A stretch of 42,541 nucleotides of DNA from a virus (taxonomy: Duplodnaviria > Heunggongvirae > Uroviricota > Caudoviricetes): IMG/VR virus record IMGVR_UViG_2529293215_000009. One strand, 5' to 3'. Under the pieces are notes generated by a model that saw only the letters and a program-made list of their open reading frames with translations, made no database searches and was not told where the DNA came from. Shown in pieces: positions 293 through 13,204 of the stretch (within the stretch, counting starts at the first letter, position 1; every line of letters begins with the position of its first letter). The position numbers and the translations under genes are program-made.

Positions 293-325
293 ATCTGAGA
301 AACGATTTTGTCGGAGGAAATTTTA

Positions 326-1042
326 ATGGAAACCGTATCTGACGCACTGAAAGCACTGAAAAGAGCCTCTTCACATGTGGTGGCAGCTCGCCTTGGAATT
401 AGTCGTGAAGAGGCTGTCAACGAACTGTGGAAACTGAAACGCCGTGGAGAAGCGGATAACAAGGGGGCGATATGGTGGCTGACTCAGGCTGGTGAAAGTG
501 AACCGGTGTCACCGGTACCGAAAGTGACGGCGCAAATGCTGACAGAGGCGATTGAACAACATGGCCCACAAACGGCGGATGAACTGGCATTGATGTTCGG
601 AATTACCTCCCGCCGGGCGAATTCATCGCTGGCAATGGCAATCAGCAAAGGGTGTCTGATTCGCGTGAATCAGGATGGTAAATTTCGTTACTGCATACCG
701 GGCGTTGATTTACCGGCAGAGCCGAAAGCAGCATCCGTAGCTGAAACGGAGGGTAAAGCCCTTCCTCAGCCAGCTGGTGTTGCGTTACCAGTCCAGGAAA
801 CGGCTGCACAGGAAGAAATTAAAACAGAAGCGGTGGAGGACATTGTGAAGTTGCAGCAATCGTTCACTGAAGCGAAAGCAGATGACCTGATTCTACCATC
901 GCTGCATGTGGCTAACCGCGAGCTGCGCCGGGCGAAAAGTAATGTTCAGAAGTGGGAGCGAGTCTGTGCTGCGCTACGGGAACTGAACAAACACAGGGAT
1001 ATTCTCCGGGATATTACCGCCACCAGAGAGCAGCAGCGGTGA
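326..1042 (+). CDS. hypothetical protein, possible winged-helix DNA-binding repeats
   Basis: ORF 308..1042; GGAGG at 313-317 then ATG 326; two segments resembling wHTH ([38 protein letters not shown]). Confidence 0.45.
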
Positions 1043-1356
1043 GTGGCTGGAAGAAGTGGCGCTGGGCTGAAATCCTGATACTCCGGCAGTGTGCGGGAAC
1101 GATGAGAGTCGAAAGCATCGGTTATCTGATTGGCCGTAGTGAGTCAGCCGTCAGGACGAAAGCGCGGGAACTGGGTATCAGCATGATGTTACGGGGTGAT
1201 TATCACCAGTCAGCCAAATGTTCACAGCGTGATATTGAGCTGGCGTGGCAACTGCATCAGCGTGGTGTACCCCGACGGGAAATTGCCGAAAAGTTTGGGA
1301 TGAAGTTGGGCGCAGTGAATAACTACGTTTATTTCGACAGGAGGGTTCAGGAGTGA
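1039..1356 (+). CDS. hypothetical HTH-like protein
   Basis: GTG at 1039 overlaps stop of upstream ORF (GTGA); motif [18 protein letters not shown] suggests HTH; start uncertain. Confidence 0.35.
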
Positions 1357-1655
1357 GGGTGAGGGTTTATATCGCCGGTCCGATGACGGGATATGAAAAT
1401 TTTAACCGCGAGGCATTTCACAAAACGGAAGAGGTGCTGAAACGGGAAGGGCATACCGTTTTAAACCCGGCAGTACTTCCGGACGGGCTGACTCAGCCAC
1501 ACTACATGGATATTTGCATGGCAATGCTCCGTTGCGTGGATGCGGTTTACATGCTGAAAGGCTGGCAGCAGTCGGCAGGTGCAGGGGCTGAGCTGGCACT
1601 GGAGGAGAAACCGGGCCATGCGGTGATTTTTCAGGAGGTGGGCAGTGAATATTGA
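1353..1655 (+). CDS. DUF4406-like prophage protein (nucleoside 2-deoxyribosyltransferase-like fold)
   Basis: N-terminus VYIAGPMTGYENFNREAF...GHTVLNPA typical of DUF4406 family found in lambdoid prophages; GTG start overlapping previous stop. Confidence 0.5.
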   Translation: MRVRVYIAGPMTGYENFNREAFHKTEEVLKREGHTVLNPAVLPDGLTQPHYMDICMAMLRCVDAVYMLKGWQQSAGAGAELALEEKPGHAVIFQEVGSEY

Positions 1656-1684
1656 CCCGGCGATAACGATTGATATGGCCCTGA

Positions 1685-1689
1685 ACGCC
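1685..1689. repeat. candidate 5-bp target-site duplication (ACGCC), left copy
   Basis: ACGCC directly precedes putative left terminus TGTAACC; identical pentamer at 40909..40913 directly after right terminus. Confidence 0.45.
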
Positions 1690-1862
1690 TGTAACCAGGT
1701 GAATCATTTGATACCAACGAGGGTTTTAGTGAAAGGAGGTGAAATCACCTGTAAGATACTGAAATAAAACAGGTGATGTCTGGATGAGCGCTTAAAGTCT
1801 ATTTGATACCGATTGTGCAATAATTAATCGTTTATTCTAAAATCGGCAAAACTTTTGATACT
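1690..1862 (+). repeat. left end (attL-like) with three TTTGATAC(C/T) putative transposase-binding repeats
   Basis: TTTGATACC at 1707..1715 and 1802..1810, TTTGATACT at 1854..1862; same motif in inverted orientation three times at right end; starts 5'-TGTA like Mu. Confidence 0.55.
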
Positions 1863-1939
1863 GCGATCTCAACTTTTTAAAGCGTTTAAAACTTCATTAA
1901 ATCTATATGGCAACTAACATACGGGCCAGCCTCGCCAAA

Positions 1940-2470
1940 CTAACCCGCTTTAGATTCTACCGGATTTGATTGCCTACTTGTCTCGGTTTTTTCCAAAATC
2001 TCTCTGACGCAATCGTCTGGCATATCTACAATCATCAACGCAGCCAGGCGCTTCCTGCCTTCTAGTTGTAATAAATCCTGGTTTTCTTTATCCAGCAGTG
2101 TCAGAACCGTCTCTACACCTTTGCGAGCAAGGAGATTGGTTAACTGTTCTCGTTCGTCTTTCGTAAGGAATGAAAGCATCTGTGTAAGTTGATCTCCCTT
2201 ATCACCAGAACAACCAAAATTACCACAAATACCAACATCGTTTGGTGATTCACCCTTGCCCTCTTTAAGCCACTCAAGACTAACTCCTTCACTTTCAGAA
2301 ATTCGTATAAGGATACTTTCTCTGGGGGCTGGTTGTGTTTGTCCTCCCTTGAAATAGCTGTTTAATGTGTTGATATTGATTCCCCACGCTCTGGCAGCTG
2401 CACTTCTTGAAGGGTAGCGCTTTGTAAGCATTCCAATACGTTCAATAACAGGTTCTTTTCCCTGCGACAT
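1940..2470 (-). CDS. c: prophage repressor (c-like), HTH DNA-binding
   Basis: Minus-strand ORF next to left end and divergent from ner as in Mu; HTH-like SRSAAARAWGININTLNSYFKGG; start taken at ATG 2470 (MSQGKEP) with upstream AGAGG. Confidence 0.65.
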   Translation of the reverse strand: MSQGKEPVIERIGMLTKRYPSRSAAARAWGININTLNSYFKGGQTQPAPRESILIRISESEGVSLEWLKEGKGESPNDVGICGNFGCSGDKGDQLTQMLSFLTKDEREQLTNLLARKGVETVLTLLDKENQDLLQLEGRKRLAALMIVDMPDDCVREILEKTETSRQSNPVESKAG

Positions 2471-2552
2471 AAAGATACCTCTTGGTGCTTTTCTAAGGAA
2501 AGGTTTCTTTCTATTTATCCAATTGAAAAATAAGGATAAAAGCAAAAATTAG

Positions 2553-2587
2553 CCAAAATACCAAAAATACCTTGATTTGGTATTTTT
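2553..2587. promoter_or_regulatory. operator-like repeats between c and ner
   Basis: CCAAAATACC AAAAATACC ttgattt GGTATTTTT: perfect 9-bp inverted repeat with 7-bp spacer plus a direct copy, in the divergent c/ner control region. Confidence 0.5.
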
Positions 2588-2600
2588 AGTGATGCATTAT

Positions 2601-2640
2601 TTACCCGTGCAGATATCCGCACGAATATCCGCGCGGGTAA
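2601..2640. promoter_or_regulatory. second operator-like element (inverted TTACCCG arms enclosing tandem ATATCCGC)
   Basis: TTACCCG at 2601..2607 and CGGGTAA at 2634..2640; ATATCCGC at 2613..2620 and 2625..2632, about 20 bp upstream of ner ATG. Confidence 0.4.
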
Positions 2641-2660
2641 CTTTTTAGAATAGAGGAAGT

Positions 2661-2909
2661 ATGAGTAGAAGAGAAGTTTCAGATCACGATTGGCCGCCTG
2701 AAATCATCAAGGCGCGCTTACACATGGCTGGCTTATCACTGCGCTCTTTATCTTTAAAGGCTGGTTACAGCAGGGATTCGCTGAAAAGCGTATTACGTAC
2801 TCCTTGCCGACCGTATCAGCAAATAATTGCTGATGCTCTTGGGGTATCGCCTGAAGAAATCTGGCCCAGTAGATACCAGGTTAAGAGCTATATGAGAAAG
2901 GCGTCATGA
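2661..2909 (+). CDS. ner: Ner-like DNA-binding regulator (Nlp/Ner family)
   Basis: 82 aa; C-terminal QQIIADALGVSPEEIWPSRYQ closely matches Mu Ner EQIIANALETKPEVIWPSRYQ; position immediately upstream of transposase. Confidence 0.85.
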   Translation: MSRREVSDHDWPPEIIKARLHMAGLSLRSLSLKAGYSRDSLKSVLRTPCRPYQQIIADALGVSPEEIWPSRYQVKSYMRKAS

Positions 2910-2910
2910 T

Positions 2911-5001
2911 ATGTATGTCATTGCAAAAGAACTGATTGGCGCGCCCGGAATGCCTGCTACAACAAAAGGTATTCGCCAGGCATTACAACGTTACGTACAA
3001 GGGAAAAGCTGTTGTTCCCGTCGTCGCTCAGGCTCTAAAGCAACTGAATACAGCATCGACTGTTTACCTGAAGTGACGCAGCAGGCATTACGTGAACGTT
3101 ATGCCCTGCAACTGATGACGCAAAAAGCCGATGAATCACCGGCTCCGGTAGTGACAAAGGCCAGGCGCTCACCTGCCGTGGTTGATGCGGTGGAGGCATA
3201 TCGCGGATCACCACAACTGATGGTCGAACGCCTTAATGCCCTGACTGAAAACCAGCGCCAGGTGGCTGATGCACGAATCGCGATCGTCAGCGAAGTTCTG
3301 AAAGTCGCGCAACAACCTGGTTTCAGCTGTGCGAAGGCTATCCGGTTTATCGTTGACAACCTGGCACGTTCGCAGCTGGACGAGCGCATTGTGGCAATGG
3401 TTGAGACGGCGAACGCCAAAAAGGGAAACAGCCGCGCGTTAAGTGAAATCACGCTGAAACGCTGGATTGCGGCCTTTAACAAGGCGCAGAACGCCGCTGA
3501 ACGCCTGCTTTTACTGGCACCGGGTAAGCGCCAGGAAATAAAAGCCGAAGATATTAACTGGCTGCCCGAATTTCTGGCGCAGTATCGCCAGTCAAACGGC
3601 CGACCAATGACCGAGGCTTACGAGGATTTTGTCGCTGAATGGCAGCACCGGCACGCTGATGAGCCTTATATGCTCGATATCATGCCGTCTTATGACACCA
3701 TTCGCCGCGCAATGAAGAAACTGCCGGAAGTGGTGAAACAAAAAGGCCGGGTGACCGGCAGTGAATACCGCCAGCTTGAGGGATTCACGCGCCGCGACTG
3801 GTCAAAAATGCCGGTGAATTATGTCTGGATTGGTGACGGTCACGGCATGAAGCTGAAATGCGCACACCCGGTTCACGGTCGGCCATTTGCACCGGAAGTG
3901 ACCTTTGTTATCGACGGTGGCACGCGCTTTGTGGTGGGCTGGAGCCTTGACCTGGCTGAAAATGTTTTCGCCGTAGCCGGTGCCATACAGCACGGCATTC
4001 GCCATCACGGCAAACCGTTTCTGTATTACTCGGATAACGGCTCCGGGGAAACCGCCGACATCCTGGATAAGGAGGTTGTGGGGATACTGCCGCGACTGGG
4101 GATTAATCACCCGACCGGGATTGCCGGTAATCCGCAGGGACGAGGCATTATCGAACGGCTTAACCGCACATTACCGATGCGCATAGCCCGTAAATACCGC
4201 ACCTATTTCGGGAAAGGTGCAGATCGCGAGACGTTACGCAAAACCAACCGCGATTTACGCTCGGCATTTACTGCCCTGCAACAGGGCAAACGGCTGAACG
4301 CCCGGCAGCAGTCAGCGATGCGTGATTTACCGTCCTGGTCTGAACTGATTGATGCCATTCGTGATGGTGTTGAGTGGTACAACAACCGGCCGCACGATGA
4401 ATTACCGGTGAAGCCGAACGGCAAGCATTACAGCCCGGCGGAGTTCAGAAAAAAACGCCTGGCGGAAGAGGACACGGAAATTGAATGGCTGTCCGATGTG
4501 GAATTGCGGGACATGTTCCGGCCGATGGTGGAACGCCCTGTAAGACGCTGTGAAATACGCTGGCTGAATAATATTTACTACGCGCCCGAGCTGCGTGATG
4601 AGCATGGCCGCAAGGTGCTTATCAGCTATGACATTCATGATGCCGAACGAATTACCGTACGTCGCCTGGATGGCAGCGTGATTTGCGAGGCGGTATGGGA
4701 CGGTAATAAACGCGAAGCCTTCCCGGTTAGCGCGGAATACTACAAACAGCAGCAACGCCTTAAAGGCATGCGTAAACGCGCAGAGGAAAAAATCCGTGAT
4801 GCCGAGGATGAGGTTGTCAACGTGCTGGAGCACAAGCCGCAGGAGCCCTGGCTGGAAAACATCTATCGCCCGGTAGGTAATACGGTGGCCGTTCAGCAAC
4901 CTGCCGTTGATGATGAGCCTGATGAAGAATACGAGCGCAATTTCCAGCGGGGATTGCAGTTGCTCGAAGCGAAATTAAAAGAAAATGACCCGCTGGCCTG
5001 A
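2911..5001 (+). CDS. A: Mu-type DDE transposase A
   Basis: 696 aa after ner; DDE-like blocks NYVWIGDGHGMK, LYYSDNGSGE, GNPQGRGIIERLNRTL; size and position as MuA. Confidence 0.9.
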   Translation: MYVIAKELIGAPGMPATTKGIRQALQRYVQGKSCCSRRRSGSKATEYSIDCLPEVTQQALRERYALQLMTQKADESPAPVVTKARRSPAVVDAVEAYRGSPQLMVERLNALTENQRQVADARIAIVSEVLKVAQQPGFSCAKAIRFIVDNLARSQLDERIVAMVETANAKKGNSRALSEITLKRWIAAFNKAQNAAERLLLLAPGKRQEIKAEDINWLPEFLAQYRQSNGRPMTEAYEDFVAEWQHRHADEPYMLDIMPSYDTIRRAMKKLPEVVKQKGRVTGSEYRQLEGFTRRDWSKMPVNYVWIGDGHGMKLKCAHPVHGRPFAPEVTFVIDGGTRFVVGWSLDLAENVFAVAGAIQHGIRHHGKPFLYYSDNGSGETADILDKEVVGILPRLGINHPTGIAGNPQGRGIIERLNRTLPMRIARKYRTYFGKGADRETLRKTNRDLRSAFTALQQGKRLNARQQSAMRDLPSWSELIDAIRDGVEWYNNRPHDELPVKPNGKHYSPAEFRKKRLAEEDTEIEWLSDVELRDMFRPMVERPVRRCEIRWLNNIYYAPELRDEHGRKVLISYDIHDAERITVRRLDGSVICEAVWDGNKREAFPVSAEYYKQQQRLKGMRKRAEEKIRDAEDEVVNVLEHKPQEPWLENIYRPVGNTVAVQQPAVDDEPDEEYERNFQRGLQLLEAKLKENDPLA

Positions 5002-5071
5002 AATAAAAAATAACCCGAGCGGCGACTCAGGTTATTTGATTAAACAAGGTATCAAATGAGAGGTTAATAAT

Positions 5072-6004
5072 ATGACTGATATTAACGATGTAATCAAGAC
5101 CATTGATGAACTTATTGATGGCGGCGTACTGACGCAGTATGCCATCGCCAGAGAGGCGGGAATTTCCGACGGCACATTATCGGCTTTCCGCAAGGGGAAA
5201 TATAAAGGCGATAACGCCGCTGTGGCTGCTTCCCTGCGTTCCTGGTATGAGAACTGGAATAAACAAAGCGCACTGCCGGAACCGCCGCAGTTTGTGGAAA
5301 CGCAGACAGTTCAGGAGCTGCGCGCACTGTTTCAGGCGGTTCGCCTGATGGGCTGTATTAACGTCATTGTGGGCGTGCCGGGGGTAGGTAAAACGGCCAC
5401 CGCCCGTAATTACTGCCAGGAGCAACCAAACACCTGGATGATCACCCTGTCACCCGCGCACTCCAGCGTCACGGAGTGTCTGCTGGAGCTGGCCGATGCG
5501 CTGGGGATTGATTACACCCGCGCGAACAAAGGGGCATTATCCCGCGCCATCCGCCGTCGCCTGATGGGAACGCGTGGACTGGTGATTGTGGATGAGGCGG
5601 ATCATCTTGGTATTGACGGTCTGGAGCAACTCCGGGCAATTCAGGACGCCACGGGGATCGGGATGGTGCTTATTGGTAACCCGCGCGGATTGTTTAAAGG
5701 TGGACGCCGCGCCTTTGATGATTTATCGCGCCTGTTCAGCCGTCTTGCCCGTACAAAACAACTTCGCAAGGCCAAAAAGGCGGATGTGCTGGCCATTGCC
5801 AGGGCATGGGGTATCAGTGGTGAGGCCGAGCTGGCCGTCATGCAGGCTATCGCTGAAAAGCCGGGAGCGTTACGCGTTCTGACACATACGCTTAACCAGG
5901 CGTGGCTCACCGCCAGCGGTGAAGGTGCGGCGCTGACAGAAAAACATATTAATGCGGCCTTTAAAGAGGTTTATACCAACCCTGAATTACTCTCACAGGT
6001 GTGA
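5072..6004 (+). CDS. B: Mu B-like transposition ATPase (AAA+)
   Basis: 310 aa; Walker A GVPGVGKT, Walker B LVIVDEADHLG; immediately after A. Confidence 0.9.
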   Translation: MTDINDVIKTIDELIDGGVLTQYAIAREAGISDGTLSAFRKGKYKGDNAAVAASLRSWYENWNKQSALPEPPQFVETQTVQELRALFQAVRLMGCINVIVGVPGVGKTATARNYCQEQPNTWMITLSPAHSSVTECLLELADALGIDYTRANKGALSRAIRRRLMGTRGLVIVDEADHLGIDGLEQLRAIQDATGIGMVLIGNPRGLFKGGRRAFDDLSRLFSRLARTKQLRKAKKADVLAIARAWGISGEAELAVMQAIAEKPGALRVLTHTLNQAWLTASGEGAALTEKHINAAFKEVYTNPELLSQV

Positions 6005-6006
6005 TT

Positions 6007-6228
6007 ATGGCGGTATTTTATATTCCTGATATTTACGGACGCTTTTACCTGGTTAATTTCGATAACGTGAAGGTGATTTCACTGGCCGAAAATAAAGAAT
6101 GTGGCGATTTACTTTTTGAATTTAATGACCGCACACGAATGGTGATATCTGCCGGACTTGATCGCGAAGGTGCGACAGAAGTTTACAGCGGAATATGCCG
6201 TTCTGTTGGTGCGAAACAAGTCAGCTAA
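6007..6228 (+). CDS. hypothetical protein (accessory early region)
   Basis: ORF 6001..6228; ATG at 6007 just after B stop; no recognisable motif. Confidence 0.4.
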   Translation: MAVFYIPDIYGRFYLVNFDNVKVISLAENKECGDLLFEFNDRTRMVISAGLDREGATEVYSGICRSVGAKQVS

Positions 6229-6240
6229 ATGAGGTGTTAT

Positions 6241-6495
6241 ATGAATATGCAATCCTGCGGTAACAAAATGAATTTATTCGACTCCCTGAACAGCGCGCGC
6301 CGTCTGACCGAACTTGCCGGTGCGGTACTGGAACGCAGTAAGCGCTACCCACAACGTTTTGCACTGAAAACCACGCCGCCGGTAGGCAACGTGCAGGGAA
6401 CCGGTGAAATTGAAATCACCATACAGACCAACGGCCTGCGCCGCCGTGTGAAGGCCACCCGCATCAGCGGCTGCACGGTTTACTGGGAGGTGTGA
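6241..6495 (+). CDS. hypothetical protein (accessory early region)
   Basis: ORF 6229..6495; GAGGTG then ATG at 6241. Confidence 0.4.
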   Translation: MNMQSCGNKMNLFDSLNSARRLTELAGAVLERSKRYPQRFALKTTPPVGNVQGTGEIEITIQTNGLRRRVKATRISGCTVYWEV

Positions 6496-6496
6496 G

Positions 6497-6778
6497 GTGA
6501 AAAAAAATCTCATTGCATGGGCGTGGTCGAGTGGTCTTATTGAGTTTGGTTACGTCCTGCCGGAAGGTGCATTGCCGATAGTTGCCGGAAAGCCTGCCAC
6601 GGTACGGCATGTGATTGAGGTTATGGCGCGTCATGGACGTGATGAACAGGAGCAGTTACTGGTTCCGGGGATACCGGAAGCGGTGACGGAGGAAGAAGCC
6701 TTTAATGCCATGATTCGGTTCTGCCGTGAGGTCAGACGCCGGGTCAGTTATCCAAACAGAACGAGGACCAGAGGATGA
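6497..6778 (+). CDS. hypothetical protein (accessory early region)
   Basis: GTG start preceded by GGAGGTGTGAGG; 93 aa; tightly packed in operon. Confidence 0.4.
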   Translation: MKKNLIAWAWSSGLIEFGYVLPEGALPIVAGKPATVRHVIEVMARHGRDEQEQLLVPGIPEAVTEEEAFNAMIRFCREVRRRVSYPNRTRTRG

Positions 6779-7047
6779 GTAAAGTCGTACGCATTATTTT
6801 CGAATACAAGGAGCACGTTATCCATAAAAACGCTGATGGAACAGTGCGCATGGGGGTAAGTCTGGACATACGTTCAACCGGGATAAAGCAGAAAGGTGAT
6901 GGACCCGCCATGATTTTTGGGGTGGTTATGCTCGCGGAAAGCAGAGACTTTGCTGAACTTGTGGCAATGAAAGCCAGTGCGCTCATGAAAGATATGAGCA
7001 TGCGTTCCGGGGTTATTAAAGGTAATGAATTTAATCAGCAGGGGTAA
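6775..7047 (+). CDS. hypothetical protein, paralog 1 of a tandem pair
   Basis: N-terminus MSKVVRIIFEYKEHVIHKNADGTV parallels the next ORF. Confidence 0.45.
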   Translation: MSKVVRIIFEYKEHVIHKNADGTVRMGVSLDIRSTGIKQKGDGPAMIFGVVMLAESRDFAELVAMKASALMKDMSMRSGVIKGNEFNQQG

Positions 7048-7051
7048 TTCC

Positions 7052-7345
7052 ATGAGCAAAGTACGCGTTATTTTTGAATTTAAGCATGTTTCGCATGACG
7101 AAAAACCGGCAGGCAATGACTGTGTTGAAGTGCATGAAAAGATTGGTGTGGATGTAAAAACAGAACGTGATACGAATAACAGGCCGACGTCACTCTGTGA
7201 CGTTTATGCAAGTATTCTCCAGTATCACAGCCCTGAAATTATTCAGTTTCTCTCAGCGGAATTTCAGGCATCTGTACAGGCTTTTGGGGCGGATGCCATC
7301 ATTAAACGCCACCGCGTGCATAAAGCATCAGGCACACTGCAATAA
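7052..7345 (+). CDS. hypothetical protein, paralog 2 of a tandem pair
   Basis: ORF 7025..7345, ATG at 7052; N-terminus MSKVRVIFEFKHVSHDEKPAGNDCV parallels the previous ORF. Confidence 0.45.
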   Translation: MSKVRVIFEFKHVSHDEKPAGNDCVEVHEKIGVDVKTERDTNNRPTSLCDVYASILQYHSPEIIQFLSAEFQASVQAFGADAIIKRHRVHKASGTLQ

Positions 7346-7356
7346 GGAAAAACAAA

Positions 7357-7887
7357 ATGGCAAAACGCGTTACAAAATTAAAGGCCGCAGCAGAGGCGGC
7401 ACCGCAGACCCGTGAAGAGGTCAGCCGCGATATCCGCACCCTGGGCGATATTCAGCGAGAGGCGCTGCGCCTGGAAACAGCGATGAATGATGAAGTGGCA
7501 GAAATCACCGCCCGTTATACGCCGCAGATTGAAAACCTTAAAAAAGAAATCAAAGTGCTTTTTAAGGGGATTCAGGACTGGTGCAAAACCAACCGTGATG
7601 AGCTGACGAACGGCGGCAAAACCAAAACTGCCAATCTGACCACCGGAACGGTGTCATGGCGACTGGGGAATCCATCATGCAGCGTCAGTCGTGATGTGGA
7701 AGGTGTGATTGAAATGCTGCGCCGTATGGGCCTTGAGCGTTTTATCCGCACGAAAGAGGAAGTGAACAAGGAAGCGGTCCTGGCGGAGCCGGATGCGGTG
7801 AAAGGGATTGCCGGTATTAAGGTGAATAAAGGCGCTGAAAGTTTTTATGTCGAGCCTTTTGAACAGGACGCCGGACTGAATAAATAA
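7357..7887 (+). CDS. gam: host-nuclease inhibitor Gam (Ku-like DNA end-binding)
   Basis: 176 aa; RLETAMNDEVAEIT, NRDELTNGGKTKTANLTTGTVSWR, LERFIRTKEEVNKEA closely match Mu Gam. Confidence 0.9.
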   Translation: MAKRVTKLKAAAEAAPQTREEVSRDIRTLGDIQREALRLETAMNDEVAEITARYTPQIENLKKEIKVLFKGIQDWCKTNRDELTNGGKTKTANLTTGTVSWRLGNPSCSVSRDVEGVIEMLRRMGLERFIRTKEEVNKEAVLAEPDAVKGIAGIKVNKGAESFYVEPFEQDAGLNK

Positions 7888-7984
7888 CACCGCATTAATC
7901 AATTAAATATCACTTCGTTTTAATTATGGCGCTCGCGTCAGGGGACTGCCTGCGCCTGTAAACTGAAAATAAGGAACAGGATAT

Positions 7985-8527
7985 ATGGCATATTTTTATT
8001 TCAAATTAGACCGTGTGCAGACAAATAAATATTTCACCAAATATCAACAGACTGTTTTACCGCTACGCAACAGTATTCTTCGGGCATTACTGAAAAATAC
8101 AGGCGCTGCCGGATTGCGCTTAAAGCCGTTTGCCATGGACGTAATCAGTGAGTTTTATTTTTCTGGTGCTCTGCCTGCGGGCTGGCGTAAGCGCGATGAT
8201 GTGGCTTTTATCGGGGACGGACCGTGCTTTATTGCCAGACCTGATGAGTCATGCCCTGAAGGTCCGGCGATTGCCGCAATGATTGAAACCGCTGAACGTG
8301 AGTTAAGAAAGCGTCCTGATTTCCTTGTCTGGCTCTGTGAAAAGCTGGGGGTAATGAGAATCCCCTCCATGTTTAACACGGACTCCTGGTGGACCCCGTC
8401 GCTCTCCCGTGATGCCCTGTGCGTGGTGTTTAAAGTAGGCGCTTATGGCAGGGAAATAAAAGGGTGTATTCCTGAAGAATGCCAGGAAATTAAACATTCT
8501 GAATATGTGGCGCTGACGGAGGAATAA
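7985..8527 (+). CDS. hypothetical protein (accessory early region)
   Basis: 180 aa ORF with ATG start; no recognisable motif. Confidence 0.4.
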   Translation: MAYFYFKLDRVQTNKYFTKYQQTVLPLRNSILRALLKNTGAAGLRLKPFAMDVISEFYFSGALPAGWRKRDDVAFIGDGPCFIARPDESCPEGPAIAAMIETAERELRKRPDFLVWLCEKLGVMRIPSMFNTDSWWTPSLSRDALCVVFKVGAYGREIKGCIPEECQEIKHSEYVALTEE

Positions 8528-8530
8528 TTC

Positions 8531-9064
8531 ATGATTGATGCAAAAGTGCTTGAAGGGGTTAAAAACTGGCTGAGTATTTACGGGCGTCTGACCTGCGGCA
8601 TTCTGGCTGAAAAAATGAATATGCCGCCATCCTCGATGGTTTATTTTCTGCGTGATGCGGTCGATGCCGGGGTGCTGACGGAATGTAACGGTTTTTATGA
8701 TATTCCGCGTCCCCGCCCGGTGCAGCCGGTTCGTCGCAAATGCAGCCAGGAAGGTGCGGCTGATGATGTTCAGTGGTGCAGCTTCAGAAAGTCCCTGCCG
8801 TGGATTGAGGGGCATGATATTCCGTCGATGGCGTGGGAATTTGCTCAGGGCGTACTGACCTGCGAAACCGTTTATGTGGTGGCTGAAGTTGATGAGCAGG
8901 CCATGAAAGAAGGCGTGCCCCAGTTTGTGATGGCGTATATCGACATTCGCCTGGGTGTCATTATCTGCGGTTTAAGCGGCTGGAATATCACCGAACATGT
9001 TCTGCGTTACCTGATTGTTGACCGGACGGCTGCGCCTGCCGGGATATCTGCGGAGGTGGCGTAA
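8531..9064 (+). CDS. hypothetical protein, possible N-terminal winged helix
   Basis: 177 aa; N-terminal VKNWLSIYGRLTCGILAEKMNMPPSSMVYFLRDAVDAGVL resembles wHTH. Confidence 0.4.
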   Translation: MIDAKVLEGVKNWLSIYGRLTCGILAEKMNMPPSSMVYFLRDAVDAGVLTECNGFYDIPRPRPVQPVRRKCSQEGAADDVQWCSFRKSLPWIEGHDIPSMAWEFAQGVLTCETVYVVAEVDEQAMKEGVPQFVMAYIDIRLGVIICGLSGWNITEHVLRYLIVDRTAAPAGISAEVA

Positions 9065-9579
9065 TGTTCTTTAAAACATCAAACCCTTCCGCGCTGGCTG
9101 CGTGGCAAAAATACCAGCAGGACTACAAGAAAGTTAAGGATGAGGCAAAACGTCTTGAGGCCGTGCTGAATGTTGATTGTCGGTCGGTATTTGTATCCGG
9201 TATCAATGGTTTTTATTTTAAAGGACTGCGTTTTACGGATAACAAATATCCTTTTCATCGCGACTTATGGCGAAAACCGACTGCGTCGAATGGCTGGAGC
9301 TGCACGCCGCGCACATCGTGTATTCCCAAAGCCCTGTGCGCTGCCTCTGACGAACTTAACAGTCTGTGGCGTGAATATTCGCCCGTCACGTATGCCAGAA
9401 CCGATGCCCTGTTGTTCTGGCTGGGTATTGATTTCTCGGCAATCCTGTTTGGCCCTGTGGAGTGGTTCTGCGTTGACGATGTGATTTACCTTCAGTGCGG
9501 CGTAAAACCCGCAAAACAGAAAATGACCGAAATTCTGTCTGATGAGTTTTATGCTGCTGAAAAGCGAGTCAGGGGGTGA
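9064..9579 (+). CDS. hypothetical protein (accessory early region)
   Basis: 171 aa; start overlaps upstream stop (TAATG). Confidence 0.4.
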   Translation: MFFKTSNPSALAAWQKYQQDYKKVKDEAKRLEAVLNVDCRSVFVSGINGFYFKGLRFTDNKYPFHRDLWRKPTASNGWSCTPRTSCIPKALCAASDELNSLWREYSPVTYARTDALLFWLGIDFSAILFGPVEWFCVDDVIYLQCGVKPAKQKMTEILSDEFYAAEKRVRG

Positions 9580-9582
9580 TGT

Positions 9583-10134
9583 ATGATGATTTTACAACCC
9601 ATGGGGCGAAAAGGCCGTGCACCCGCTCATGTCCGTGCGTGGACACCTGAAGAAGATGCACTGCTGATTGCGCTTTATCCATCCACCCCGGTTAAGGATA
9701 TTGCTGTCAGGGTAAAAAGAAGTTTCTGGGGTGTACATAACCGGATTGTTTTATTACGCGGTACTTACCCGGAGTTGCTCAAATGCAAACGTCCAAGATT
9801 TAAACATGATGAAGATAAATTTATCCGAAAAAATGCCAGAACGATGACCGGTAAGCAAATAGGAGAATATCTGGGGCGAGACCGGGATTCTGTCCACAAA
9901 CGGGCGCGATATATTGGCGTAAGCATGAAAAAATACGGAGAGTTGCTGCCCTTCACCCGTATACCTGATGATGATGTTCATCTTATTCGTGAATTACGGG
10001 ATGCTGAATCACCACGACGTCTTACCTTCCGGGAAATAGGCGAGAAATTTGAATTATCCGAGAGTACGGTGAATTTTATTTATCACCATCGCCGGACTGC
10101 CGAAGATGTTGTATTACGGGAGTTAATGCCATGA
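9583..10134 (+). CDS. hypothetical protein with three HTH-like repeats
   Basis: Three internally repeated segments (WTPEEDALLIALYPSTPVKDIAVRV, DEDKFIRKNARTMTGKQIGEYLG, DDDVHLIRELRDAESPRRLTFREIGEKF). Confidence 0.45.
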   Translation: MMILQPMGRKGRAPAHVRAWTPEEDALLIALYPSTPVKDIAVRVKRSFWGVHNRIVLLRGTYPELLKCKRPRFKHDEDKFIRKNARTMTGKQIGEYLGRDRDSVHKRARYIGVSMKKYGELLPFTRIPDDDVHLIRELRDAESPRRLTFREIGEKFELSESTVNFIYHHRRTAEDVVLRELMP

Positions 10135-10442
10135 TAACGACATTATTTGTTGAATCAGACGAGCCTCTGGTATGTGCCGCCGGAATGTCGGTTTGTGGCG
10201 GAACGCTGACCGGTGTTTATTTCGGGGATTTGCGCGGTTATCCCTGGCATTCACTGGATGACGCATTTCCGCCTGATATGGAGGCTGTCGTGCTGATTGT
10301 TCAGTATGGTGACCAACAGGAACTGCGCATCGGCCATATGGGGTATGAAGGCTTTTTTATTGATGAAGAAACCGGAGCCTGCCTTGAAGATGAGGACGGA
10401 CAGGTGACGCACTGGTGCCATATTTCAGCTTTACCGGAATGA
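10131..10442 (+). CDS. hypothetical protein (accessory early region)
   Basis: 103 aa; start overlaps upstream stop (ATGA). Confidence 0.4.
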   Translation: MITTLFVESDEPLVCAAGMSVCGGTLTGVYFGDLRGYPWHSLDDAFPPDMEAVVLIVQYGDQQELRIGHMGYEGFFIDEETGACLEDEDGQVTHWCHISALPE

Positions 10443-10456
10443 CGGGAGGTGAATGC

Positions 10457-10807
10457 GTGAGAAGTTATATTGATAATGAAAAACTGAAGACAATCAGCGA
10501 CTGTCTTAGCTTGCTGGCAAAAATAAAAGAAACCATTGAAGAGATTAAATTTCAGCTTGAATACGAACCCTGTGGCGATGATACATGGCGTAACTCTGCC
10601 AGAAAAGCACTGGCTGTCTTTCAGAAACAACGCCGGACTGTTGAATACCGCCTTGCTGTATTGCGCCAGGAGGAAAAGGAAAGAAATATAAGACGTCATG
10701 AACTCGTTAATGATTTTCTTGTTCGTGAATTAAAGGAGCGTGTGCCGGAGTCGGTATTTTTTGAGTGTGAGGCTGTTGCCCGTAGCAAAGCACTGGAAAC
10801 TGATTAA
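10457..10807 (+). CDS. hypothetical protein (start uncertain)
   Basis: ORF 10415..10807; GTG at 10457 preceded by GGGAGGTGA; coiled-coil-like composition. Confidence 0.35.
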   Translation: MRSYIDNEKLKTISDCLSLLAKIKETIEEIKFQLEYEPCGDDTWRNSARKALAVFQKQRRTVEYRLAVLRQEEKERNIRRHELVNDFLVRELKERVPESVFFECEAVARSKALETD

Positions 10808-10819
10808 ACAGGCAGGTGA

Positions 10820-11155
10820 ATGATGAGTATTGAATTAAGATCGTCTTATGAATATCGTAAAATTCTCATCGCCGGAGGCATGAAACCGGAAGATGCAGAA
10901 AAAATCGTTTCTTTTATGGATAAAGAATGTGACAAACGGGATATGCCAGAAATTATTATGGATGACATGATTCTGCATTCAGCCGTAGCGTTAAGCCCGT
11001 TATGGATTGTGCATTCTCTTGCTGAAATTGCCAAAGGCACCGATAAACAGGCAGCTGTTGCTGCCCTTCAGACGCTTAATGAAATGCGTATATCTCCACG
11101 CCCGACATTAATACATATGATTCTGTCCAGCATGGAGGATAAAGCAAATGAATAG
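10820..11155 (+). CDS. hypothetical protein (accessory early region)
   Basis: 111 aa ORF. Confidence 0.4.
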   Translation: MMSIELRSSYEYRKILIAGGMKPEDAEKIVSFMDKECDKRDMPEIIMDDMILHSAVALSPLWIVHSLAEIAKGTDKQAAVAALQTLNEMRISPRPTLIHMILSSMEDKANE

Positions 11156-11345
11156 TCTACCCGCTGGATGGGCGCGGCCACTAATGGCCAGGAAGCATCA
11201 TTTTTTTAAAACAGGCGAAAATATCAGTATATGTGGACGGTGGTTATATCTGGCTCATAATCGCGAGCCGGATACATTTGAAAGCCCTGATGACTGTGCC
11301 GAATGCCGCAGAAGAGTGAATAAGGAGAAAGATAATGGACAATAG
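11148..11345 (+). CDS. hypothetical small protein, possible Cys-rich metal-binding
   Basis: 65 aa; Cys at ICGRW and DDCAECRRR. Confidence 0.35.
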   Translation: MNSLPAGWARPLMARKHHFFKTGENISICGRWLYLAHNREPDTFESPDDCAECRRRVNKEKDNGQ

Positions 11346-11631
11346 TTCTCTGTTGTTCTGGTGCTTATATATCACATCCTTTTTCGGCGCATTTGTTATT
11401 ACCCGGTGGTTATGTCGAAAAATCATCTGCTTTTTTGATAAAAGACATCCGGTTGAACGGGCGGCTGATGCGCTCATTCAGCAGGCCATTGTGTTATATA
11501 GCGGTGAATTTTTCTGCCGGATAACAACCAGAGATGGCTGGCACATAATGATTATTCCACCAACACACCATGCCCGGTGGGATGAGGCAGAAAAGGCTTT
11601 CCATGTCCGTAAAAAGGTAAATACGGTATGA
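11335..11631 (+). CDS. hypothetical small membrane protein
   Basis: 98 aa; hydrophobic N-terminus LLFWCLYITSFFGAFVITRWL. Confidence 0.35.
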   Translation: MDNSSLLFWCLYITSFFGAFVITRWLCRKIICFFDKRHPVERAADALIQQAIVLYSGEFFCRITTRDGWHIMIIPPTHHARWDEAEKAFHVRKKVNTV

Positions 11632-12137
11632 GAGGAAAACTGATATCCGCCATTCATGTGGCAAAGCGCGAGCTTGCCCTGGATGATGAGACTTATACAT
11701 CCGCGCTGCTGGCAGCCACCGGCAAAACCAGCTGCCGGGATATGTCACCGGATGAGTTATCCCGCGTGCTGGATGTTTTCAAAAAACGCGGTTTTAAAGT
11801 GCGTCAGAACCCGGTTAACCGGGCCTTAAAACCGGGTACGGTGACCGCCAAAATTCGCGCCATCTGGAAGGTGATGCACCGGCAGGGCTTTATCACCGAT
11901 GGTGCGGAAACCGCCCTTAACCGCTGGGTGAAATCGCAGACGGCCGCGCAGAACGGCGGCGAAGGTGTGGCAAACTGGCAGTGGCTGGAGCAACACCCCG
12001 CCCTGGCCTCAGATGTGCTGGAGCGTCTCAAGCGATGGCACCGCCGCAAAATGCTGGCCGCGATGGGAATGCCCGAACGCACGCTGATGGGGTATGACGC
12101 CGTTTGCAGGCAGTATGAAAAATCACTTCCCCGTTAA
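11628..12137 (+). CDS. gemA: GemA-like protein (Mu gp16 family)
   Basis: N-terminus LISAIHVAKRELALDDETYTSALLAATGKTS...FKKRGFKV matches the conserved gp16/GemA pattern; sits just before mor as in Mu. Confidence 0.75.
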   Translation: MRGKLISAIHVAKRELALDDETYTSALLAATGKTSCRDMSPDELSRVLDVFKKRGFKVRQNPVNRALKPGTVTAKIRAIWKVMHRQGFITDGAETALNRWVKSQTAAQNGGEGVANWQWLEQHPALASDVLERLKRWHRRKMLAAMGMPERTLMGYDAVCRQYEKSLPR

Positions 12138-12142
12138 CCCCA

Positions 12143-12172
12143 AATCCCGCCACAACGCGGGATTTTTATTTT
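12143..12172 (+). terminator. intrinsic terminator at end of early operon
   Basis: AAATCCCGC cacaac GCGGGATTT hairpin followed by TTTTATTTT, right after gemA stop. Confidence 0.65.
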
Positions 12173-12206
12173 AAACTTACCGGGAACGCGAGAACCGGAG
12201 GCTGAT

Positions 12207-12632
12207 ATGGCAGAAACTCAGATGAGCATGTTTGGTGGTGACAGTGAGCAACTGCACGCCCTTATCGACCGCCTTGATGACATCCCTGATGATGTTCTCA
12301 AAAAGAACTGGCCGCGGACCCTGTCAGAACTGGTTGAAGTCACCGGCGCAGAACTTCAGCGTCAGGGGATTGAGCCGGTACTGGCCGGTAAACTGGCACG
12401 CAAGGTGGCTGCGGCTCAGGCAGCCTATATGGGCGGACGGGGTTATTACCTGCCGGTCGGGGAATCTCTCTTTGCCGAGCTGCGAAACAATGAGATATTT
12501 TCGCGCTGGGACCGGGGCGAGAAAATTGAATCCCTTCGCCGCCATTACCGGATGTCAGAAACCCAGATTTATACCGTCATACGTGAACAGCGCCGTCTGC
12601 ATCTGGCAAGAACGCAACCGCCACTTTTCTGA
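12207..12632 (+). CDS. mor: Mor/C-family transcriptional activator
   Basis: 141 aa; LRNNEIFSRWDRGEKIESLRRHYRMSETQIYTVIREQRR parallels Mu Mor IRDLRIWNDFNGRNVSELTTRYGVTFNTVYKAIRRMRR. Confidence 0.8.
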   Translation: MAETQMSMFGGDSEQLHALIDRLDDIPDDVLKKNWPRTLSELVEVTGAELQRQGIEPVLAGKLARKVAAAQAAYMGGRGYYLPVGESLFAELRNNEIFSRWDRGEKIESLRRHYRMSETQIYTVIREQRRLHLARTQPPLF

Positions 12633-12703
12633 TATTCCGCAAAGCCTGCCGCCTTTCCTTCACCGTTACGCTGACTCAGAGAACATCATGAGACAGCGTA
12701 ACA

Positions 12704-13204
12704 ATGCCAAAACTCCCCGCACCACTGCGTAAAAAGCTGATTGCCCTTGTTCTGGCCGGTGCCGGGACGTTCACGATTGCCACGCATTACACCGGTTACT
12801 GGGAAGGGAAAGAAAACTCCACGTATATCGATCCCACCGGTACACCCACCATCTGTTACGGCCATACCGGCCCGGATGTGAAACCGGGTATGACCCTGAC
12901 GGATGAAGAATGCCTGGAACTACTGGAAAAGGACATGAAATGGGCCTTTGCGGCCATTGATCGGCGTGTTCAGGTGCCGCTTACCCGTGGTCAGACTGTG
13001 GCGCTGGCTTCGTGGATCTTCTGGGCCGGTGAAACGAACTTCCGCAACTCCACGCTTCTGCGCCTGATCAATGCCGGGCAGATGCCCGCGTCCTGTAAGC
13101 AGTATATCCGCTGGATTTATTCAAAGGGGGTGAAACTCCCCGGCCTTGAGGCCCGCCGTTCGGCGGATGAATGGTTATGTCGCTACGACTTGCCGAAAGT
13201 CTGA
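12704..13204 (+). CDS. lys: endolysin (lysozyme-like) with N-terminal signal-anchor (SAR type)
   Basis: Hydrophobic N-terminus KLIALVLAGAGTFTIATHY then E-x8-D-x5-T lysozyme catalytic spacing in EGKENSTYIDPTGTPTICYGHT. Confidence 0.8.
   Translation: MPKLPAPLRKKLIALVLAGAGTFTIATHYTGYWEGKENSTYIDPTGTPTICYGHTGPDVKPGMTLTDEECLELLEKDMKWAFAAIDRRVQVPLTRGQTVALASWIFWAGETNFRNSTLLRLINAGQMPASCKQYIRWIYSKGVKLPGLEARRSADEWLCRYDLPKV

Follow-up and report, generated by a model that had tools for sequence, protein, structure and literature searches.

The gene block at positions 6007–11631 of the window (the whole 42,541-nt stretch of viral DNA that was analyzed) belongs to a Shiga-toxin E. coli Mu-like prophage of the Sp18 type, of which it is the semi-essential early region, and we put the probability that, as a whole, it forms part of a long Mu-type early operon with accessory functions at about 85%. 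The region is already known: its counterpart is Sp18 of E. coli O157:H7 Sakai (ECs_4947–ECs_4959, 98–99% identical), which has been annotated since publication of that genome, and the block was found in 233 of 5426 complete E. coli genomes. Because it is a known Sp18-type early block in which few genes are recognizable and most have no known function, we regard it as ordinary rather than as a new kind of system.

Identity of the element and layout of the early operon

The original prediction had placed the block in the semi-essential region of a Mu-like phage, between B and gemA, and this was borne out by Pfam matches to MuA, MuB, Gam, GemA, and Mor in the Mu order; homologues of Mu Kil, gp9, gp11, and gp12 add to the Mu-type architecture. 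Window positions 1690–10137 and 10808–40909 aligned to Sakai Sp18 (annotated as "Mu-like phage") at 98.8–98.9% identity, and a near-identical copy (98.1%) lies inside the published coordinates of phi804-3 of strain FRIK804 (PMC7430833). The block and its flanking features are as follows.

About 1940–2545, − strand: divergent repressor
2661–2909, + strand: ner-like HTH gene, which with A and B makes up the front of this transcription unit (Pfam; RefSeq annotation at the near-identical locus)
2911–5001, + strand: MuA-like transposase (Pfam Mu-transpos_C, HTH_Tnp_Mu_1)
5072–6004, + strand: MuB-like ATPase (Pfam Phage-MuB_C)
6007–11631, + strand: the block, from the ATG of the first ORF after B to the stop of the last ORF before gemA
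11628–12137, + strand: gemA, outside the predicted range (Pfam GemA, E 3e-30; product 44% identical to Mu GemA)
12142–12165, + strand: intrinsic-terminator-like hairpin and T-run (9-bp stem with 5 GC pairs, then TTATTTT)
12207–12632: Mor family gene, flanking

The limits originally proposed for the block were exact, coinciding with the first ATG after B and the last stop before gemA; the estimate of about 13 ORFs did not hold, and 15 were counted (14 plus gam). As had been proposed, all of them are co-directional, on the + strand. Their junctions consist of overlaps of 1–11 bases or gaps of 1–15 nt, with the sole exception of a 97-nt gap after gam, and the last ORF (w15) overlaps gemA by 4 bases. 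The terminator-like site at 12142–12165 sits in the gap directly after the gemA stop. Six such sites are listed on the + strand from 1800 to 13000; this one is the richest in G-C stem pairs and the only one that is both extragenic and has five of them, and it is the probable end of the early transcript.

Because the ORFs share one strand, their junctions overlap or nearly abut, and an extragenic terminator-like site with five G-C pairs lies right after gemA, we interpret the block as belonging to one operon. It would make up the distal two thirds of an early operon comprising ner, A, B, w01–w15, and gemA. By analogy with Mu, transcription from the early promoter would follow inactivation of the divergent repressor and most likely stop at the hairpin and T-run, giving one polycistronic message from which 15 proteins would be translated across tight or overlapping junctions. 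In a promoter scan, sigma-70-like sites were no commoner than expected by chance, and the scan did not identify Pe. Sp18 has been reported not to be mitomycin-inducible (PMC2669165).

Recognizable products

The ORFs of the block, all on the + strand, and one intercistronic element are listed below.

6007–6228, + strand: w01, 73 aa, acidic, directly after B (PHROG 3375, E 2e-46)
6241–6495, + strand: w02, 84 aa, basic, Kil family, distant homologue of Mu Kil
6497–6778, + strand: w03, 93 aa, large family of small proteins recurring in Mu-like early regions
6775–7047, + strand: w04, 90-aa orphan (PHROG 4107, E 1e-61; dN/dS 0.27–0.31)
7052–7345, + strand: w05, 97-aa orphan (PHROG 2230, E 2e-40; dN/dS 0.31)
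7357–7887, + strand: gam, Ku-like DNA-end-binding protein (Pfam Phage_Mu_Gam, E 1.5e-41)
7918–7956, + strand: intercistronic element, invariant TTTTAATTAT, then hairpin GGCGC..CGUCAGGGGAC..GCGCC
7985–8527, + strand: w07, 180 aa, DUF5420-related, optional slot (PHROG 2260, E 7e-75)
8531–9064, + strand: w08, 177 aa, Mu gp11 homologue, 68% identical
9064–9579, + strand: w09, 171 aa, Mu gp12 homologue, 54% identical
9583–10134, + strand: w10, 183 aa, net charge +12, repeated HTH/Myb-like units, related to Mu gp9
10131–10442, + strand: w11, 103 aa, pI 4.05, net charge −17, part of a swappable cassette
10457–10807, + strand: w12, 116 aa, charged-residue-rich orphan (PHROG 6158, E 2e-57; dN/dS 0.14)
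10823–11155, + strand: w13, 110 aa, SfMu gp14 homologue, 34% identical (dN/dS 0.07–0.13)
11148–11345, + strand: w14, 65 aa, basic, 3 Cys and 3 His, orphan (PHROG 2358, E 5e-34)
11335–11631, + strand: w15, 98-aa orphan with a hydrophobic N-terminal segment (PHROG 17269, E 2e-32)

The original prediction held that nothing but gam was recognizable. Most products indeed have no assigned function, but w02, w07, w08, w09, and w10 can also be recognized; searches of Pfam, NCBIfam, PDB, and PADLOC were mostly empty, and Kil, Gp11_C, gp12, gp9-like, and DUF5420 relations were found. Pfam gave no match for w01–w05, w07, w09, or w11–w15, NCBIfam none for the ten products scanned (w01–w05 and w07–w11), and the PADLOC defence models none for the block ORFs, among which Gam alone had sequence relatives in the PDB.

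The w02 protein matched PHROG 2679 "Kil" (E 8e-46), the same PHROG that Mu Kil matches at 9e-5, and alignment of the two local MSAs with hhalign gave a probability of 85% (P 6.6e-6, 64 columns). Furthermore, a Salmonella protein with a precomputed Pfam PF26843 Kil_protein assignment is 72% identical to w02, and newer RefSeq records name a w02-identical protein "Kil protein family". Mu Kil blocks host division and kills. The gam product is 57% identical to Mu Gam, matches PDB 2p2u (E 1e-9), and has a dN/dS of 0.03; Gam binds linear DNA ends and shields them from RecBCD. For w07, a direct Pfam scan was negative, and the DUF5420 relation comes from SfMu gp11 (a DUF5420 family protein in RefSeq, 40% identical) and from a Salmonella protein with precomputed PF17457 (31%) and its adjacent paralogue (38%). 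An exhaustive HMMER search with w07 gave six clusters only, and the gene is absent in E. coli AF39 and HH35.

The w08 protein carries Pfam Gp11_C (E 6e-41, residues 90–167; dN/dS 0.07), has an N-terminal winged helix predicted from sequence alone (HTH_10, E 0.27), and is probably DNA-binding. For w09, a Salmonella protein with precomputed PF26885 Phage_Mu_Gp12 is 51% identical, and a 95% identical allele is a "Mu-Gp12 family protein" in RefSeq. The w10 product, a putative DNA-binding protein, matched PHROG 323 "transcriptional regulator, D5-like" (E 6e-58), as does Mu gp9, to which it is 31% identical; its Pfam signals (HTH_AsnC, Sigma70_r4, and Myb) were all sub-threshold, and its RefSeq names include "SANT/Myb-like DNA-binding domain-containing protein". 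No other gene has diverged as far between E. coli alleles (78.6% nucleotide identity, dN/dS 0.29).

A conserved hairpin after gam

The element at 7918–7956 has counterparts at this location in Mu, SfMu, and Salmonella prophages, among them one in which DUF3164 stands in for gam, and in 80 IMG/VR loci. Two stem pairs show compensatory changes (9 of 22 sequences have U-A for C-G, and 6 of 22 have A-U for G-C), and 91% of cells are paired versus 35–54% when the partners are slid. There is no U-run after the stem and no Rfam match. The hairpin may act at the RNA level, and our guess would be a processing or stability element that sets the expression of gam and the upstream genes relative to the downstream genes.

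The w03 family and lineage-restricted genes

The w03 family comprises at least 1475 small proteins. Its NCBI name is "host nuclease inhibitor protein", for which the searches made found no experimental basis. The gene repeatedly adjoins an end-protection gene (Gam or DUF3164) across many Mu-like prophages, and the Kil–w03 pair also occurs in Klebsiella and Yersinia. The likeness of w03 to MbtH-like proteins is one of shape alone, with a sequence identity of just 9–14%, no real sequence similarity, and no Pfam MbtH match at E ≤ 5; unlike those proteins, w03 has an additional C-terminal helix and no NRPS context.

The products w01, w04, w05, and w12–w15 are lineage-restricted orphans. An 80-aa protein 55% identical to w01 occupies its position in Salmonella Mu-like prophages, and w01 had no match in Pfam, NCBIfam, PDB, or PADLOC; w04 had none beyond PHROG 4107. 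The first ~15 residues are common to w04 and w05 (hhalign P 0.0015 over only 32 columns). The w12 gene was present in only 11 of 80 related IMG/VR loci and w14 in 6 of 80, the latter having one 45% identical match that adjoins gam in a gammaproteobacterial MAG. The w13 protein and SfMu gp14 share PHROG 1988. The w15 protein reaches the highest hydropathy of any product over 19 residues (1.82, at residue 5), in a hydrophobic stretch that is a possible membrane anchor, and is swapped for other genes in AF39 and HH35. The acidic w11 is possibly a divergent DUF551 domain (Pfam DUF551, E 0.2; hhalign against the DUF551 protein YfdS, P 1e-3 over 55 columns); its relatives are restricted to E. coli and Salmonella (at least 53% identity, mostly 71–97%), its AF2 model is unreliable (pLDDT 52), and in both Sakai Sp18 and PA11 a single 61-aa ORF takes the place of w11 plus w12.

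Mosaicism and possible roles of the small genes

In 42 Gam-bearing loci of other species, Gam and GemA (29 loci) are the only products that come back often. Within E. coli, w07, w11–w12, and w12–w15 are present, absent, or swapped, and in one comparison the nucleotide identity falls from >99% (w01–w03) to 79% (w10). Judging from position only, we infer "host modulation" for 9 of the 15 products: w01, w03, w04, w05, and w11–w15 may act as dispensable modulators, adapting the host to lytic transposition-replication by routes such as host shut-off, the handling of DNA ends or nucleases, and possibly counter-defence. Such small modulators would evolve by cassette exchange at two slots, one right after the post-gam hairpin and one between w10 and gemA.

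By analogy, it is reasonable to suppose that the block may hold anti-defence or host-takeover functions, as was originally suggested. A narrower explanation, which overlaps the accessory-operon reading and does not exclude it, is that the variable small genes (especially w03, w07, and w11–w15) form a counter-defence island, acting early against host or resident-prophage immunity (restriction-modification, RecBCD-linked systems, Gabija, and others), with the swaps reflecting an arms race. The early-operon position and the cassette-like presence, absence, and replacement in close relatives fit this idea, as do the recurrence of w03 beside Gam or DUF3164 and the composition of w11 (103 aa, net charge −17), which is typical of DNA-mimic inhibitors; moreover, in a Pseudomonas Mu-like phage both Gam and GemA show a genetic interaction with Gabija (PMC12407980). 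However, w01–w05 and w07–w15 matched no anti-restriction or anti-CRISPR PHROG, and no solved-structure relatives were found for the candidate products. The sole "host takeover" PHROG label is that of w03, a name not traceable to experiment, and the w11 model is unreliable for judging mimicry, its only weak similarity being to DUF551, a domain of unknown function. We hold a counter-defence island to be unlikely.

It is much less probable that some ORFs serve lysogenic conversion as "morons", being expressed while the prophage is repressed and benefiting the host through superinfection exclusion, defence, or stress tolerance. Reverse-strand genes in a slot such as that just upstream of gemA are typical of morons, and relatives carry them there, examples being the DUF2513 gene of AF39 and the small − strand ORFs of HH35, Salmonella, and SfMu; the possible membrane anchor of w15 would also suit this role. 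In the window, however, all 15 ORFs lie on the operon strand, overlapping or nearly abutting, with no upstream gap to hold a promoter and no excess of promoter-like sites. The transcript of ECs_4953, the Sakai orthologue of w07, was detected in uninfected Sakai under stress (up 2.8-fold under TiO2/UV; PMC11301168), but Sp18 late genes rose along with it, which would fit partial induction better than lysogenic expression.

Reality of the genes

The block consists of real, tightly packed genes. The same 15 CDSs are annotated in RefSeq in a 99.8% identical genome, a purine-rich SD-like motif lies ~5–12 nt upstream of 15/15 starts, and every ORF matches an existing PHROG family (E ≤ 2e-32). On the + strand, 97.9% of the sequence lies within ORFs of 60 aa or more, compared with 47% on the − strand; 1000 first-order Markov simulations averaged 28.8% and reached 58% at most. 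Among the genes whose divergence permits a test (w04, w05, gam, and w08–w13), the dN/dS was 0.03–0.31 in pairwise comparisons with diverged E. coli alleles, and w01, w02, w03, and w07 are kept at the protein level (38–72% identity) in Salmonella Mu-like prophages. The alternative that several small ORFs are chance frames or decayed pseudogenes of a defective prophage, to which the shortness of some (65–73 aa) and the restriction of w04, w05, w12, w14, and w15 to matches with close relatives, whatever the library, might point, is already largely refuted by ORF coverage far exceeding chance, the SD motif at every start, these dN/dS values, protein conservation reaching Salmonella, Shigella phage SfMu, and Pseudomonas phages, the judgment that Sp18 is intact (PMC2669165), and the presence of the Mu-like prophage at differing sites in different strains (PMC7430833).

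Comparison with known Mu-like phages

The Pseudomonas Mu-like phages (Casadabanvirus, e.g., JBD69 and JBD30) resemble the window in Gam (56%), in GemA and Mor at the end, and in a member of the w03 family, 50% identical, that lies two genes past gam, whereas their remaining small ORFs are unrelated and their transposase and late regions come from a different lineage. The Shigella phage SfMu has w07 (40%), w08, w09, and w13 in common with the window, and Salmonella prophages have w01, Kil, w03, w07/DUF5420, w08, w09, and w11; comparison with two Salmonella loci turned up no w04, w05, w10, or w12–w15 there. Many elements of the SfMu/Salmonella/Klebsiella/Yersinia group carry DUF3164 instead of Gam, and their SEE regions are shorter or differently filled.

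The semi-essential region of Mu (kil/gp5 to gp14, before gemA) has the same B–gemA position and the same strand, and shares Kil (distant), Gam (57%), gp11 (68%), gp12 (54%), a gp9-type HTH protein, and the post-gam hairpin. In contrast, Mu gp6, gp7, gp8, gp13, gp14, and gp54 have no counterpart in the window, and w01, w03, w04, w05, w07, and w11–w15 have none in Mu. The gp9-like gene follows the gp12 homologue in the window but precedes gam in Mu; furthermore, unlike in Mu, a terminator comes after gemA and mor stands apart, and the Mor-family protein resembles Mu C (39%) more closely than it does Mu Mor (26%).

Sakai Sp18 is the same element with the same gene order, with identities of 98.1% at block positions 1–4131, 99.2% at 4802–5625, and 98.8–98.9% over the whole prophage. 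The two differ in that the window has w11 and w12 (670 bp, 10138–10807) where Sakai has the 61-aa ECs_5772 (204 bp), and in their insertion sites: the prophage of the window lies inside a lambdoid prophage, whereas Sakai Sp18 lies in sorM.

Identity and spread of the element

Alignment of the whole window with Sp18, the Mu-like prophage of E. coli O157:H7 Sakai, showed 98.8–98.9% identity across 1690–10137 and 10808–40909. From this alignment, the Mu-like prophage spans approximately 1691–40914, and window positions 1–1690 and 40910–42541 are flanks. The region studied here (6007–11631, + strand), which lies between the transposition gene B and gemA, corresponds to ECs_4947–ECs_4959 of Sakai, and the Sp18 record is annotated as "Mu-like phage". 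The features that frame it are as follows.

308–1042: lambdoid-prophage gene encoding DUF1627, in the flank left of the Mu-like prophage
2911–5001, + strand: MuA-type transposase (Pfam)
5072–6004, + strand: MuB-type ATPase (Pfam)
7357–7887, + strand: Gam (Pfam, E = 1.5e−41)
11628–12137, + strand: GemA (Pfam)
12207–12632, + strand: Mor-family activator (Pfam)
35963–36523: Gin-like invertase, part of the prophage's right-end cargo
36623–38662: 679-aa protein combining DUF6645 with a sialate O-acetylesterase (SASA) domain, right-end cargo
38898–39775, − strand: two unannotated ORFs, right-end cargo
40044–40781: Mom, right-end cargo
40875–41186: lambdoid-prophage gene encoding DUF4752, in the flank right of the Mu-like prophage

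The window thus carries a complete Mu-like prophage and, because this is flanked by lambdoid genes, it is inserted within another prophage. The interrupted gene is a tail tape-measure gene in the closest RefSeq genome and sorM in Sakai. The 679-aa SASA protein of the right-end cargo recalls the NanS-p esterases that Stx phages carry.

The 5.6-kb region was present in 233 of 5,426 complete E. coli genomes and in two Stx-converting phage records, and some of the carrier insertions lay within Stx or other lambdoid prophages. A copy with 98.1% identity over the region (hit H78) falls inside prophage phi804-3 of FRIK804 as its coordinates were published; this prophage is reported to be 96.5% identical to Sp18 and to occupy a different insertion site (PMC7430833). 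The element is widespread in Shiga-toxin-producing E. coli, and host-takeover functions would be expected among its accessory early genes.

The 15 ORFs are genes

The original prediction described an operon of about 13 small co-directional ORFs in a Mu-like phage's SEE (semi-essential early) region. Its coordinates proved exact, with the first ATG at 6007 and the last stop at 11631, and the common orientation was confirmed; the ORF count was slightly low, since 15 consecutive ORFs (w01–w15, in order), all on the + strand, lie between B and gemA. The placement in the SEE region also held: Pfam matches to MuA, MuB, GemA, and Mor flank the region on the same strand, the RefSeq annotation agrees, and the pair that marks an SEE region, kil and gam, is present, Gam (w06) by its Pfam match and w02 by matches to the Kil family.

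RefSeq calls the same 15 coding sequences in an O157:H7 genome with 99.8% identity. ORFs of at least 60 aa covered 97.9% of the + strand and 47% of the − strand, against a mean of 28.8% and a maximum of 58% in 1,000 Markov simulations. An SD-like motif precedes every one of the 15 starts, and the ORFs are joined by overlaps of 1–11 bases or gaps of 1–15 nt, with the single exception of a 97-nt gap after gam. In comparisons with diverged E. coli alleles, all genes with enough substitutions gave dN/dS values of 0.03–0.31, and the products of w01, w02, w03, and w07, which are too alike within E. coli for this calculation, shared 38–72% identity with proteins of Salmonella prophages. The 15 ORFs are real genes. 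The − strand ORFs (for example, 8303–8815 and 10301–10699) were rejected as genes because the overlapping + frames carry the purifying selection. All 15 products matched an existing PHROG family; therefore, none is new to the databases.

Six products can be named

The claim that nothing except gam could be recognized stood only in part. Six genes are nameable (Kil, Gam, gp11, gp12, a gp9-like HTH protein, and a DUF5420-type protein), and a Pfam scan of w01, w03, w04, w05, and w11–w15 gave no match. The product of w02 belongs to the Kil family: it matched PHROG 2679 (E = 8e−46), as does Mu Kil, and aligned with Mu Kil in a profile–profile comparison (hhalign, P = 6.6e−6, 64 columns). It also shares 72% identity with a Salmonella protein for which a match to Pfam PF26843 had been precomputed, and "Kil protein family" is the RefSeq name of the identical protein. 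The local Pfam scan, in a copy lacking the PF26843 model, gave no match for w02. The product of w08 is a homologue of Mu gp11 (68% identity; Gp11_C, E = 6e−41), and that of w09 is a homologue of Mu gp12 (54% identity), with 51% identity to a PF26885-tagged protein. The basic protein w10 shares a PHROG with Mu gp9 and carries sub-threshold HTH and Myb signals; its RefSeq names vary among AsnC family, DNA-binding, and SANT/Myb-like.

The product of w07 (7985–8527) is 40% identical to gp11 of Shigella phage SfMu, a DUF5420 family protein by its RefSeq name, and it aligned over 190 aa with a Salmonella protein bearing a precomputed PF17457 match (31% identity, E = 5e−19). Hmmscan with the DUF5420 model (PF17457) matched neither w07 nor SfMu gp11, even at E ≤ 5. 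By these alignments, w07 is probably related to DUF5420 but beyond the reach of the model. A HMMER search of 1.84 billion representatives returned only six clusters for w07, so there were no distant relatives to build on. Its Sakai orthologue, ECs_4953, was the only Sakai locus tag of the region found in the literature, in transcriptome work in which its transcript was up 2.8-fold under TiO2/UV stress, together with the Sp18 late genes (PMC11301168); this is indirect evidence that this one gene is transcribed. No mention of the products' RefSeq accessions was found, and the literature on Mu SEE gene functions yielded general descriptions only.

The w03 family

A profile search with w03 (6497–6778, 93 aa) and four distant relatives collected at least 1,475 proteins, all without a Pfam domain, from Enterobacteriaceae, Pseudomonas, and others. 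For most members, the NCBI name is "host nuclease inhibitor protein", which ECs_4949 also bears in the Sakai annotation. However, w03 has no homology to a proven inhibitor (Mu Gam or lambda Gam): there was no similarity to Mu Gam in the window set, no Pfam Gam match, and no PDB relative in a profile search. In Pseudomonas phage records, the same name is also given to gam and to adjacent non-Gam genes. Because neither Gam nor any solved protein proved homologous to w03, the name of w03 appears, as judged from these searches, to have been carried over from a neighboring gene rather than tested, and the family is probably misnamed.

Family members invariably sit in a Mu-like early region. The gene directly follows Kil in prophages of Salmonella, Klebsiella, and Yersinia, within 1.5 kb of Gam or of DUF3164, the replacement for Gam in many of these prophages; in Pseudomonas phages, its place is two genes past gam or DUF3164. 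It does not belong to a universal core of Gam-bearing prophages, since a profile search detected it in just 4 of the 42 Gam-bearing loci that represent other species. An AF2 model of w03 (pLDDT 88) has three strands and two helices, a small beta3-alpha fold with no solved relative. An MbtH-like identity (PF03621) was rejected, with no Pfam match at E ≤ 5 and 9–14% identity to MbtH structures. Mu is without w03 and, to our knowledge, the family has never been studied, being absent from Mu.

Two side observations concern these loci. RefSeq calls of the w03 start (6497) differ between genomes, with a GTG start giving 93 aa or a downstream start giving 88 aa (3005–3271 of locus L051, from E. coli HH35) in DNA of 99.6% identity, which leaves the true start uncertain. 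Furthermore, in Mu-like prophages of Salmonella, Klebsiella, Yersinia, and Pseudomonas, a DUF3164 protein stands at the position of Gam (L047, 6577–7215; L133, 4571–5188; L134, 4269–4883; L135, 2997–3620). This position, which in L047 is directly upstream of the same hairpin that follows gam in the window, suggests that DUF3164 is a functional substitute for Gam.

The acidic protein w11 and the remaining orphans

The product of w11 (10131–10442, 103 aa) has 19 acidic and 2 basic residues, a pI of 4.05, and a net charge of −17. The 16 homologues listed by a word-indexed search came only from E. coli and Salmonella. Similarity to DUF551 (PF04448) was weak and sub-threshold (E = 0.2; 13 bits against a cut-off of 22), 2 of 15 w11 homologues matched DUF551 at E ≤ 1, and the w11 profile aligned with YfdS at P = 1e−3 and 21.7% probability (hhalign). 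DUF551 has been described as a portable phage domain of unknown function (PMC10834534). The AF2 model of w11 (pLDDT 52) was unreliable and was kept out of the fold search, and searches with the concatenated products and the w11 profile found no sequence relative in the PDB. DNA-mimic anti-restriction proteins of the Ocr and ArdA type are small and strongly acidic, with a surface charge that imitates DNA. With the DUF551 similarity weak and the AF2 model unreliable, a DNA-mimic role for w11 is only a guess from composition.

The genes other than the six named, w03, and w11 are narrow orphans in exchangeable cassettes. NCBIfam returned nothing for ten products (w01–w05 and w07–w11), and PDB sequence searches with the 15 concatenated products and the w03 and w11 profiles matched Gam alone. 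The products of w04 and w05 (6775–7345) open with nearly the same 15–17 residues, MSKVVRIIFEYKEHV and MSKVRVIFEFKHVSH, and then diverge; profile comparison (hhalign) confined the support to the N-terminal 32 columns, and the pair may be an old tandem duplication or share an N-terminal module. A single paralogous family of w04, w05, and Mu gp7 was rejected (hhalign P = 0.13–0.18 against Mu gp7), as was a relationship of w01 to Mu Mor or Kil, for which the BLAST match was at chance level.

A conserved hairpin after gam

The gap after gam holds the following element.

7918–7956: invariant AT-rich box TTTTAATTAT, then hairpin GGCGC..CGUCAGGGGAC..GCGCC, in the 97-nt gap after gam

Mu, SfMu, and Salmonella prophages carry this element behind gam as well, and in one gam-less prophage it follows DUF3164, regardless of the next gene. 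An exact-pattern scan located it in 80 IMG/VR contigs, 71 of which had a Gam homologue and 63 a gp11 homologue. Among 22 distinct sequences, two stem pairs showed compensatory changes and pairing occurred in 91% of cells, against 35–54% with the partners slid, where part of the 5′ half and loop was fixed by the search pattern and only the 3′ half is an independent test. The hairpin is followed by no U-run, an Rfam scan of the whole window gave no match, and the hairpin is not a terminator. We infer that it is an RNA-level processing or stability element. We are aware of no described function for it, and a lesser possibility is that it serves the Mu early operon as an RNA control element not yet described.

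Mosaic evolution of the region

Across 42 Gam-bearing loci of other species, only Gam and GemA recurred widely, in agreement with published remarks that no part of Mu-like genomes is less conserved than the SEE region (PMC4553209). In E. coli comparisons, w01–w03 were more than 99% identical where w10 was just 79% identical. The sole difference from Sp18 within the region is a cassette: Sakai has the 61-aa ECs_5772 where the window has w11 and w12 (10138–10807), and PA11 likewise has a 61-aa ORF there. Strains AF39 and HH35 are missing w07; in AF39, a reverse-strand DUF2513 gene replaces w14–w15, and in HH35, other small ORFs replace w12–w15. These losses and replacements therefore define two exchange slots, one after the post-gam intergenic element and the other between w10 and gemA. 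The natural loss or replacement of w07, w11–w12, and w12–w15 in otherwise similar prophages is compatible with an SEE region that can be dispensed with in plaque formation but improves growth.

Reverse-strand genes occur in the slot immediately upstream of gemA in E. coli AF39 (L049, 6151–6498, − strand, DUF2513), E. coli HH35 (L051, 6864–7103, − strand), and SfMu (L003, 5465–5731, − strand), the latter two being small ORFs where the window has w14 and w15. This slot looks like a moron insertion point.

Proposed working and comparison with known systems

By analogy with Mu, whose early operon organization is established (PMC4553209), the region would be the distal part of an early operon ner-A-B-w01..w15-gemA. 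On derepression, the Kil-type and other small proteins would act on the host, and Gam would protect DNA ends; w08 and w10 probably bind DNA, and the orphans may modulate the host or counter its defenses. What the analysis shows is the homology assignments; the roles of nine products are read from position.

The original interpretation was partly supported, and that host-takeover and anti-defense functions may reside here is a reasonable expectation by analogy. PADLOC defense models matched no product except w10, which gave a weak match to a homing-endonuclease model (E = 0.0017) that is a reflection of its HTH repeats, and no evidence for a new system was found in the region. That the uncharacterized products include at least one new inhibitor directed at a nuclease or an immune system of the host is unlikely. 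The two leading candidates would be the w03 family, by virtue of its at least 1,475 members, its confident fold without a solved relative, and its place by Kil and Gam or DUF3164 in enterobacterial and Pseudomonas Mu-like phages, and w11, by virtue of its net charge of −17 in 103 aa and its place in a cassette that is exchanged. The leads that merit an experiment are the w03 family, the acidic w11, and the post-gam hairpin. The practical value of the analysis lies in sorting the 15 genes into six named genes, the w03 family, w11 as a plausible DNA-mimic candidate, and orphans.

Compared with Mu, in which gemA and mor overlap, the window has a terminator-like hairpin and T-run (12142–12165) right after gemA and ahead of the Mor-family gene. 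A pattern scan of 1800–13000 gave six terminator-like sites on the + strand; this one has the most G–C stem pairs, and the other five all fall within genes. The Mor-family protein is 39% identical to Mu C versus 26% to Mu Mor, and lysis genes follow it directly. Given this separating site, the greater closeness to Mu C, and the adjoining lysis genes, the phage may have a single Mor/C-type activator. The region as a whole is an SEE region that had already been annotated, in a prophage family that had been described, and so is known in kind, and the current understanding of Mu-like phages is unchanged.
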